Below, in pieces: positions 53,264-54,656 of a DNA stretch of 64,000 nucleotides. Position 1 is the stretch's first letter; each line of letters opens with the position of its first letter. This DNA is from Octopus vulgaris (taxonomy: Eukaryota): positions 13,330,001 through 13,394,000 of the forward strand of contig OX597825.1 of the NCBI GenBank assembly GCA_951406725.2, read 5' to 3'. Under the pieces are notes generated by a model. It was not told where the DNA came from. It saw nothing but the letters and a program-made list of their open reading frames with translations, and ran no database searches. The translations under genes and the position numbers were made by a program.

Positions 53264-53878
53264 CTATATATATGTACACAAACACACACATATAAGTACG
53301 CGTGTCCGCGTCTGTGCTTGTGTGTATGTACATGTTATATATATATGTATATACATGAAACACACACACACACACACACATATATATATAGGCCAGACTG
53401 AAGAACGATTTATATTGCTTTCTCTGATCAATTTGGATAATTTCGAGTAGTCACAAATTCACTACAAGAAGCTTCGGGATTAAAATTCTATCACATCGTT
53501 TTGAAAGTAGAATCAGTTGTCGAATAAAGAATATATTTTCTCATCGCTTTTGTGAATCCATACAAATGGATACACTACCCAATTGTTCTTTTTATCTAGA
53601 ATCTCGAAGAAGTATTTATACTTAAAATTATCTCAAACATTTTTTTAGATCCTTTAGAAAGTTATTTCTCGTAGCATTTGTAATTTCTACGGTTTCTGAA
53701 AAACGTTTAATGGAAAGAAAACGGCATACAATTCTTTACCATTATTTCAGAACGACAATATCTTGGTTTCTCGATAGTTGTGCTAAATTTTTTTTTACCA
53801 TTTTGGAGAAACTGATCACAATATATTATTTACATTATTTACATTTGACAGATATTTGTCCTCATCTTGTTTTTTGTT

Positions 53879-53924
53879 AACACAACGTTTCGACTAATAT
53901 ACCTTCCAGCCTTCATCAGGTGTC
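53879..53924 (-). ncRNA. Minimal type I hammerhead ribozyme, third copy of the 23-kb family (repeat ~53822-53975)
   Basis: gacac-CTGATGA-a-ggctg-gaaggtatat-tagtc-GAAAC-GTT-gtgtt. Stem II changes are G-U compatible. Confidence 0.8.
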
Positions 53925-54276
53925 TTTGGGAAATTTCGAACCTGGGTTCTCATTCCTAAGGTATTTTTCGATGTCATTATTATTATTATTATTATTATTA
54001 TTATTATTATTATTATTATTATTATTATCATCATCATCATCATCATCATCATCATCATCATCATCATCATCATCATCATCATCATCATCATCAATTTTTC
54101 CCTTCTTTCTTCAAATTTTCTTCCGTTTCTCGCCGAGTGTTTTCCGTACATCTACGGCAGAGAAGCTCATTGTATACATTCCCGGATTACATGCGCAAAT
54201 TCACAGGTTTTATTATTATTATTATTATTATTATTATTATTATTATTATTATTATTATTATTATTATTATTATTAT

Positions 54277-54656
54277 TCAGGTCACTGCCTGATTTCGAAC
54301 TAGGTATGTTGGGAGTTAGTAGCCCGTGCTCTTAACCACTACGTCATATACTAACTAGCTACAAGTTCGTTTATTCCGGTAACATAAAAATCAGGAGTCC
54401 TGGATCTGATGAACTCTTTGAACGCACTTTCAGCATCGGTTTGATTTTTCGAATTATTATTATTATTATTATTATTATTCAGGTCACTGCCTGGAATCGA
54501 ACTCGGAATGTTGGGGTTTAGTAACCTGTGCTCTTAACCACTACGCCATATACTAACTAGTTACGAGTTTGTTTATTCCAGTAACATAAAAATCAGGAGT
54601 TCTGGAGCTGATGAACTCTTTGAACGCACTTTCAGCATCGGTTTGATTTTTCGAAC
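54277..54656 (-). mobile_element. Tandem ~200-bp duplication, each unit with a tRNA-like Pol III head followed by (TAA)n
   Basis: Minus-strand A-box TGGCGTAGTGG (54538-54548) and B-box GTTCGATTCC (54493-54502). Second head at ~54277-54348. Confidence 0.8.

Follow-up and report, generated by a model that had tools for sequence, protein, structure and literature searches.

The head-(AAT)n-hammerhead unit found in a 64,000-nucleotide stretch of the Octopus vulgaris genome (contig OX597825.1, positions 13,330,001 to 13,394,000; hereafter the window) is almost certainly the terminal repeat (pLTR) of an autonomous Penelope/Poseidon-type retrotransposon, one of the Penelope-like elements (PLEs). The explanation that we favor as a whole, at a probability of roughly 0.6, is that this pLTR carries its tRNA-like head as an internal promoter, probably one used by RNA polymerase III (Pol III). 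A preliminary description of the same DNA had proposed a non-autonomous Pol III 'ribozyme SINE' that borrows the machinery of a PLE. Its view of head and tail as one mobile unit spread by PLE machinery is borne out by their linkage and by the PLE hallmarks of the insertions, and its view of that unit as a separate SINE is contradicted by the results given below.

Head and tail form one mobile unit joined to a Penelope-type open reading frame

The genome (2.8 Gb, 227 contigs) was searched for short exact motifs of the unit. The tail-end motif occurred 4478 times and the 2 head motifs 4130 and 4858 times, and the reversed controls gave 0 matches. Family segments diverge from the majority sequence by a mean of 6.2% (375 segments), which corresponds to roughly 17 My on the clock in the available text of PMC13282606. 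Among the 30 heads ranked by score, 24 were joined to a tail (the window locus itself included). With heads taken by genomic position, a tail was found within 1 kb in 20 of 30 cases, 15 through simple repeat and 5 with an interruption, and the remaining 10 heads likewise run into (AAT)n, where several then meet other insertions. Adjacency is thus common, the reverse of the rare pairing that the preliminary description had named as fatal to its proposal, and head-(AAT)n-tail is one mobile unit of a high-copy family.

The true parent element was reached through the sequence upstream of the heads. This sequence is shared by 7 loci, and the longer ones extend into the end of a GIY-YIG-type ORF. 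When the genome was searched with this upstream sequence, 29 of 30 loci (3 near-identical duplicates included) had the head at most 20 nt from where the GIY-YIG ORF ends. On the other side, the tail lies directly upstream of the ORF, in the same orientation, in 9 of 30 N-terminal loci, and 3 of them also carry a head. Whole copies (L275-L278) match one another across approximately 2.5 kb at 89-92%. The family 'tail' consists of the first 45-55 codons of an RT-endonuclease ORF with the hammerhead in frame, and real copies keep an open frame of 219 and 227 amino acids through the hammerhead (L275 and L279). From the hammerhead codons on, the tail frame is 39% identical to the N-terminus of P0009 (E 8e-36). 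The pLTR therefore includes the ORF start, which is a mark of the PLE clade. RT and endonuclease motifs are present in family copies: a piece of L275 matched RVT_1 in Pfam (E 6.8e-7) and relatives at 45-61% identity carry PF00078/PF26215. The Pfam GIY-YIG model gave no match on the L275 endonuclease piece, and this domain was called from its motifs. No intact copy of the octopus family was found.

The family has no Zn-finger linker between RT and EN; this linker, a feature of Neptune/Nematis, is present in L091, from which the family is separated with a support of 100 in a quick tree built without named reference sequences. The RT and EN motifs, the absent linker and the tree place the family with Penelope/Poseidon rather than Neptune. 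Young Neptune-like families retrieved in the Pfam GIY-YIG search were rejected as partners because their pLTRs are unlike the tail. One of them, at L091 930-6172, has many open frames of 781 amino acids and an upstream frame of 359 amino acids. Its pLTR measures 456 bp, its 3' UTR is made of tandem repeats, it has no more than a degenerate hammerhead-like motif, and it was likely active recently. No relative was found in the viral sequence collection, and the genome collection yielded 2 partial relatives. One of these, L359, has no pLTR in view; it is a Penelope-type ORF on a contig filed under a bacterial genome and probably represents host contamination.

The window copy is a dead solo terminal repeat

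The tRNA-like head, the (TAA)n and the hammerhead tail reported at 53822-54552 are all present at those positions on the minus strand (Table 1). Head copy 1 scores 22.2 with the A/B-box matrix, as compared with 24.5-32.6 for real tRNAs. The head had been described as duplicated with the proximal copy more decayed; the decay is real (score 6.7 versus 22.2), but the duplicated unit is a 202-bp tandem that includes 103 bp of flank. Similarly, the core motifs of the hammerhead, which had been called intact, are in place, but 2 G-C pairs of stem II are now G-U, and the predicted energy of this stem is -8.8 kcal/mol in the window copy versus -13.6 for the family majority. The tail is 95.4% identical to the family majority (T1-153), and its frame, which starts at an ATG at 53953-53951, meets a premature stop at codon 20 in translation. 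None of the 3 tails in the window contains a sense-strand T4 run, as had been noted, and 2 of these tails are the arms of a single inverted insertion. The absence of T4 had been read as compatible with Pol III read-through, but a T5 run lies between the good head and the hammerhead. Given the premature stop, the T5 run after the good head and the decayed boxes of the other head, the window copy is a dead solo terminal repeat, later struck by a LINE and by a local duplication, and it could not yield a Pol III RNA running from head to hammerhead.

Table 1. Positions of the features of the 2 family insertions in the window.
Feature	Positions	Strand	Remark
Host flank, first copy of duplicated 103 bp	54553-54655	-	94% identity to 54351-54453
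tRNA-like head copy 1, 5' end of pLTR, family head positions 11-81	54480-54551	-	95.8% to family majority
A-box of head copy 1	54538-54548	-	A/B matrix
B-box of head copy 1	54493-54502	-	A/B matrix
(AAT)8, linker start, duplicated	54454-54479	-	sequence
Duplicated flank including T5 run (54386-54390)	54351-54453	-	predicted Pol III stop for head copy 1
tRNA-like head copy 2, A-box and B-box both mutated	54278-54349	-	87.5% to family majority; matrix score 6.7
(AAT)22, pLTR linker	54212-54277	-	sequence
Secondary insertion foreign to the PLE: 3' end of a presumably Dong/R4-like LINE (54095-54207) and (GAT)22 tail	54028-54207	-	
(AAT)17, remainder of linker	53977-54027	-	sequence
'Tail': 5' UTR end and Penelope ORF codons 1-44, up to the short RT-start site	53822-53974	-	
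Minimal type I hammerhead within the ORF, predicted cut after GUU (53886-53884)	53880-53923	-	
Second family insertion: 2 tail arms in head-to-head orientation that meet within the (AAT)n linker; head absent	23043-23499	.	

A hammerhead pattern search gave 4 matches in the window versus 0.00 expected (100 shuffles), and 3 of the 4 belong to the head-(AAT)n-tail family. Rfam returned no match at gathering score in the window; the check with its hammerhead model that had been suggested came out negative, with neither tRNA nor hammerhead at E<=5 in 53700-54700, and neither was matched on 8 genomic loci. ARAGORN called no tRNA in the window or in 19 loci. A TSD was found neither around the window copy nor around the inverted pair at 23 kb.

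The 118-bp insert in the linker was rejected as a part of the parent element and is a later LINE fragment. Its LINE 3' end has 2001 first-look candidates in the genome, and its relatives contain an upstream ORF with motifs that we take to be those of a restriction-like endonuclease, their copies ending in (AAT)n; the Dong/R4-like label is likewise our assumption. This LINE sits directly in the pLTR linker at 4 of 24 other loci, and together with at least 2 other repeats it inserts into the (AAT)n linker (L098, L113, L115, L119, and window 54095-54207).

Insertions carry the hallmarks of Penelope-like elements

PLE insertions are known for an inverted 5' arm, an optional tail of 30-40 nt, a junction palindrome and a TSD (PMC8557442, PMC3846280). 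Among 111 distinct insertions of the octopus family, 78 were two-stranded, and 76 of these were arranged head-to-head, with only 2 of the 78 departing from this pattern; no tandem array was seen. In 58 of the 59 pairs with both arms reaching the 3' region, one arm was short (ending at about T137-161) and the other long (T177-187), 23 of the pairs having been chosen through the tail-end motif, a choice that makes one long arm or more inevitable. A TSD, scored as a shared flank word of at least 7 nt, was present in 39 of the 59 pairs and in 3.9% of mismatched pairs. Both loop types were found with both arm types. The 2 ends of the family match the 2 internal RT-start sites of the Anolis Poseidon element (PMC11167929).

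Two pairs with other features deserve mention. L023 consists of 2 long arms, and the approximately 15 bp common to its flanks are inverted instead of direct, which would suit fold-back synthesis that had entered the target DNA. The pair at 23043-23499, both arms of which bear the tail of approximately 35 nt, is likewise a rare combination of 2 long arms, here with neither head nor TSD. Such pairs, if transcribed, would give long RNA hairpins and could be editing substrates.

The hammerhead is of the minimal type

The preliminary description had assigned the hammerhead to the minimal type of PLEs, and this assignment stands: the core, stems I and II and a palindromic stem III of a minimal type I hammerhead are all found. 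The motif fits the published description of the metazoan minimal hammerhead (min-HHR, PMC4209133), with which it shares the extra base before stem II, the G10.1-C11.1 pair, the palindromic 15.2-16.2, the lack of loop III and the short stem I; stem II is of 6 bp in octopus versus 7-8 in the metazoan min-HHR, and cleavage of the octopus motif is predicted. The CUGA-GA and GAAA bases of the core are 86-98% conserved in the family (G12 lies in a CpG), and the sole frequent core transversion (15%) falls at the free position 7, an in-frame change of Asp to Glu. Conservation of the C-G-U-U bases is 74-86%, with losses through CpG decay and deletions. RNA folding prediction did not yield the active hammerhead form, and in 3 RNA-seq runs no reads ended at the predicted cut site. 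The metazoan min-HHR showed no cleavage as a monomer and low cleavage as a dimer (PMC4209133), and in Anolis cleavage required protein, and insertion in vitro did not depend on cleavage (PMC11167929). In view of this poor cleavage and of the Anolis result, self-cleavage is not established and may not be needed.

The tRNA-like head is a likely internal promoter

The family head aligns best to a genomic tRNA-Arg(TCG), with a single gap over 71 columns (z 8.5; comparison set of 27 distinct sequences from 30 loci, covering 6 amino acids). Copy number changes at the start of the head: exact motifs approximately 130 nt upstream and at -25 to -7 occurred 896 and 1003 times, respectively, and those at head positions 9-27 and at the head end 4858 and 4130 times. 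The profile is thus flat upstream and rises 4- to 4.8-fold at the head start, a step somewhat inflated by the degeneracy of the 9-27 motif at 2 positions. Among 86 A-box-bearing heads, 26 begin at a fold-back junction, 4 join the upstream UTR without a break, and the starts of the other 56 lie at -1 to 14; the anchor limits starts to 14, and a few of the 56 derive from ORF-linked copies by deletion. No T4 run occurs in the majority ORF (2499 nt, built from 23 copies) versus 3.1 expected from synonymous shuffles (P 0.023), with P values of 0.009, 0.056 and 0.19 under Markov nulls of order 0, 1 and 2, and single real copies hold 1-3 such runs. T4 density was 3.4-13 per kb in 9 of 11 other PLE frames, the low ones being L293, in which A/B boxes were not found, and L281.

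A layout of this kind seems to be shared, with a weaker head, by a second and distantly related Penelope element. L281 is an intact 901-aa Penelope-type element on a metagenome contig that consists of one perfect 2791-nt tandem repeat, and it is 40% identical to P0001. Putative A/B boxes lie between its stop codon and its in-frame hammerhead, 158 nt before the latter, and are followed by a short AAT run (2531-2725, 5322-5516). They score 17.1, as compared with 16.3 for the best of 50 shuffles and 1.9-7.6 for 8 other regions upstream of hammerhead-like motifs, and the head is unlike that of octopus (z 0). The T4 density of this element is 0.74 per kb, and 2 T4 runs stand approximately 240 and 360 nt after the head, a spacing that would be more in keeping with short than with full-length Pol III template RNAs.

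RNA-seq reads from 3 runs mapped to a whole copy in equal orientations, 71-76% of them continued into the flanks, depth tracked copy number, and neither starts nor ends piled up at the head or at the cut site. In these runs, of unstated strandedness and possibly from a different organism, the signal is passive read-through of an old family and not a test of Pol III. A>G counts from the same reads do not serve as evidence of editing.

From the sequence, the tRNA-like head is likely the internal promoter of the element, and the odds that Pol III is the polymerase that drives the pLTR appear even. The 5' step and the lack of T4 count indirectly in favor of Pol III transcription, here of the terminal repeat that belongs to the PLE. 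An alternative, which we regard as unlikely, accepts the same pLTR and takes the head for a passenger, an old tRNA-derived SINE fragment caught between the ORF stop and (AAT)n, with the RNA made by Pol II and the accumulation of starts at the head due to RT stalling and palindrome self-priming. A palindrome at head positions 1-10 does coincide with the 5' step, and together with the 26 fold-back junctions it means that RT stalling could produce this step; junction palindromes are known in PLEs (PMC8557442/PMC3846280). The T4 statistics are modest, RNA-seq lends no support to head-driven transcription, and the promoter of D. virilis Penelope is internal, LINE-like and TATA-less (PMC2377424). 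However, the A and B boxes of the family majority are intact, properly spaced and in sense orientation, 56 of the 86 heads start at -1 to 14 with no palindrome beyond a few bases, and a second PLE, L281, has A/B boxes in the same place.

A broader formulation of the promoter reading is put forward tentatively, at somewhat less than even odds: an autonomous, coding PLE would be transcribed by Pol III from a captured tRNA promoter through an ORF purged of terminators, and such promoters would have been adopted more than once. If Penelope elements adopted tRNA promoters repeatedly, SINE-like repeats could arise as run-off copies of their 5' ends. Uncapped Pol III RNA is a poor mRNA, and a separate Pol II route to the protein is therefore possible.

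Solo copies look like by-products of the autonomous element

Solo and ORF-linked pLTRs (54 versus 76 loci) differ at 1 flagged column out of 268, where the majority base is the same, and their divergence is 5.1 and 5.6%, respectively. Because the two are alike in sequence, we regard the 'SINE' copies as apparent by-products of the autonomous element. The proposal of a separate ribozyme SINE is contradicted in this respect, since the autonomous PLE itself has this unit as its pLTR and solo copies carry no diagnostic change. We consider it improbable, more so than the passenger alternative, that solo copies are the masters of an independent non-autonomous Pol III family with borrowed PLE protein. 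Approximately four-fifths of the heads lack upstream ORF sequence, solo copies retain A/B boxes and are free of T4, and Sm-alpha offers a precedent (PMC6765202, PMC2770079); against this stand the identity of the whole unit with the PLE's own pLTR, the equal divergence with no solo-specific subfamily, and the fact that nearly all sampled solo copies end at or before T190, the Anolis element needing ORF sequence past the RT-start sites for use as template (PMC11167929). As to SINEs in general, a tRNA-derived 5' head with A and B boxes is present, although ARAGORN and Rfam do not call it, and the non-coding body that shares only its 3' end with a partner is lacking, the head being included in the autonomous element. 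Nor do the copies form the head-to-tail tandem units, each with a hammerhead, that are typical of retrozymes: they are solo or head-to-head. As to the abundant circular RNA of retrozymes, back-joints in RNA-seq reads on the whole copy are explained by the repeat present at both copy ends (without DNA control). Finally, the idea that a tRNA-derived SINE and a PLE fragment landed by chance in a single TAA tract has a negligible probability even though the (AAT)n linker does draw other insertions, being refuted by an order and orientation fixed in 20 of 30 unbiased heads, with the other 10 also continuing into (AAT)n, and by the head standing behind the endonuclease in 29 of 30 loci.

Proposed life cycle

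In the cycle that we propose for the autonomous element, the RNA would begin at the head and run, with no T4 stop, through (AAT)n into the ORF, and the hammerhead would form from the first ORF codons. Nicks made by the RT-endonuclease in AT-rich DNA would be offset by about 7-13 nt, and cDNA synthesis would start at 2 internal sites 3' of the hammerhead (about T141-159 and T184-190). cDNA begun at the first pLTR would run off the 5' end of the RNA and give the abundant solo 'SINE-like' copies, and a start at the downstream pLTR would carry the cDNA on into the ORF. Priming seems to take place at both target ends and would produce head-to-head pairs of one short and one long arm.

Relation to known systems

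Comparisons in this section refer to the available text of the cited sources. Like the octopus family, Penelope/Poseidon PLEs (D. virilis Penelope; Anolis PAc, PMC11167929; Adineta Pen2, PMC3846280) have a single ORF with RT and C-terminal GIY-YIG, a pLTR that includes the ORF start, a hammerhead overlapping that start, 2 3' ends approximately 35 nt apart, an inverted 5' arm and a junction palindrome. TSDs are of about 7-13 nt in octopus and 8-10 bp in Adineta (PMC3846280). Unlike these elements, the octopus pLTR opens with a tRNA-derived A/B-box head and (AAT)n, and the majority ORF is free of T4. Described PLE promoters are TATA-less and LINE-like (PMC2377424) or putative TATA/Inr (PMC8557442/PMC3846280), in contrast to the octopus A/B boxes.

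Schistosoma Sm-alpha and Sj-alpha resemble the octopus unit in having a type I hammerhead downstream of a tRNA-derived Pol III-type promoter; Sm-alpha, however, is non-coding and tandem with canonical hammerheads, whereas the octopus unit forms the coding end of an autonomous element and is scattered through the genome in solo or inverted form (PMC6765202, PMC2770079). Animal non-LTR retrozymes are, like the octopus copies, short hammerhead-bearing derivatives of PLE pLTRs, but they are head-to-tail tandems with a hammerhead per unit rather than head-to-head or solo copies, and the available text on them makes no mention of a tRNA-derived head (PMC7229834; bioRxiv 10.64898/2026.07.22.740005). 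The Cassandra, Helenus and Ajax TRIMs share with the octopus pLTR a Pol III-type promoter derived from a small-RNA gene inside the terminal repeat, and they are non-autonomous LTR elements in contrast to the autonomous PLE of octopus (PMC10886601). Judged by sequence features, the octopus family would work like a Pol III-headed element while being a member of the Penelope/Poseidon PLEs, and it falls outside both SINEs and retrozymes. In the literature text available to our search, neither a tRNA-headed pLTR nor this octopus family was described; the family may be catalogued without annotation in Dfam, Repbase or SINEBase, which lay outside the search. The available supplement of the O. vulgaris repeat paper (PMC13282606) contained 0 matches for hammerhead or ribozyme.

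PLE transcription is poorly known, and an A/B-box promoter inside a pLTR is directly testable. If Pol III indeed makes a coding RNA of 2.5 kb, the usual assignment of autonomous elements to Pol II and of SINEs to Pol III would break down. A tRNA-headed pLTR is also a possible route to 'ribozyme SINEs' of the Sm-alpha kind, and among cephalopod repeats now classed as tRNA SINEs some may be PLE ends. That a short and a long arm are almost always paired within one TSD puts a quantitative constraint on the unresolved mechanism of PLE integration.

Other repeats in the window

The window contains a minimal-hammerhead motif of another family on the plus strand (30637-30663), probably another PLE end, which has a score of 2.3 and no A/B boxes upstream. 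At 46833-48091, a SINE-like unit of 231 bp forms 2 short tandem arrays.
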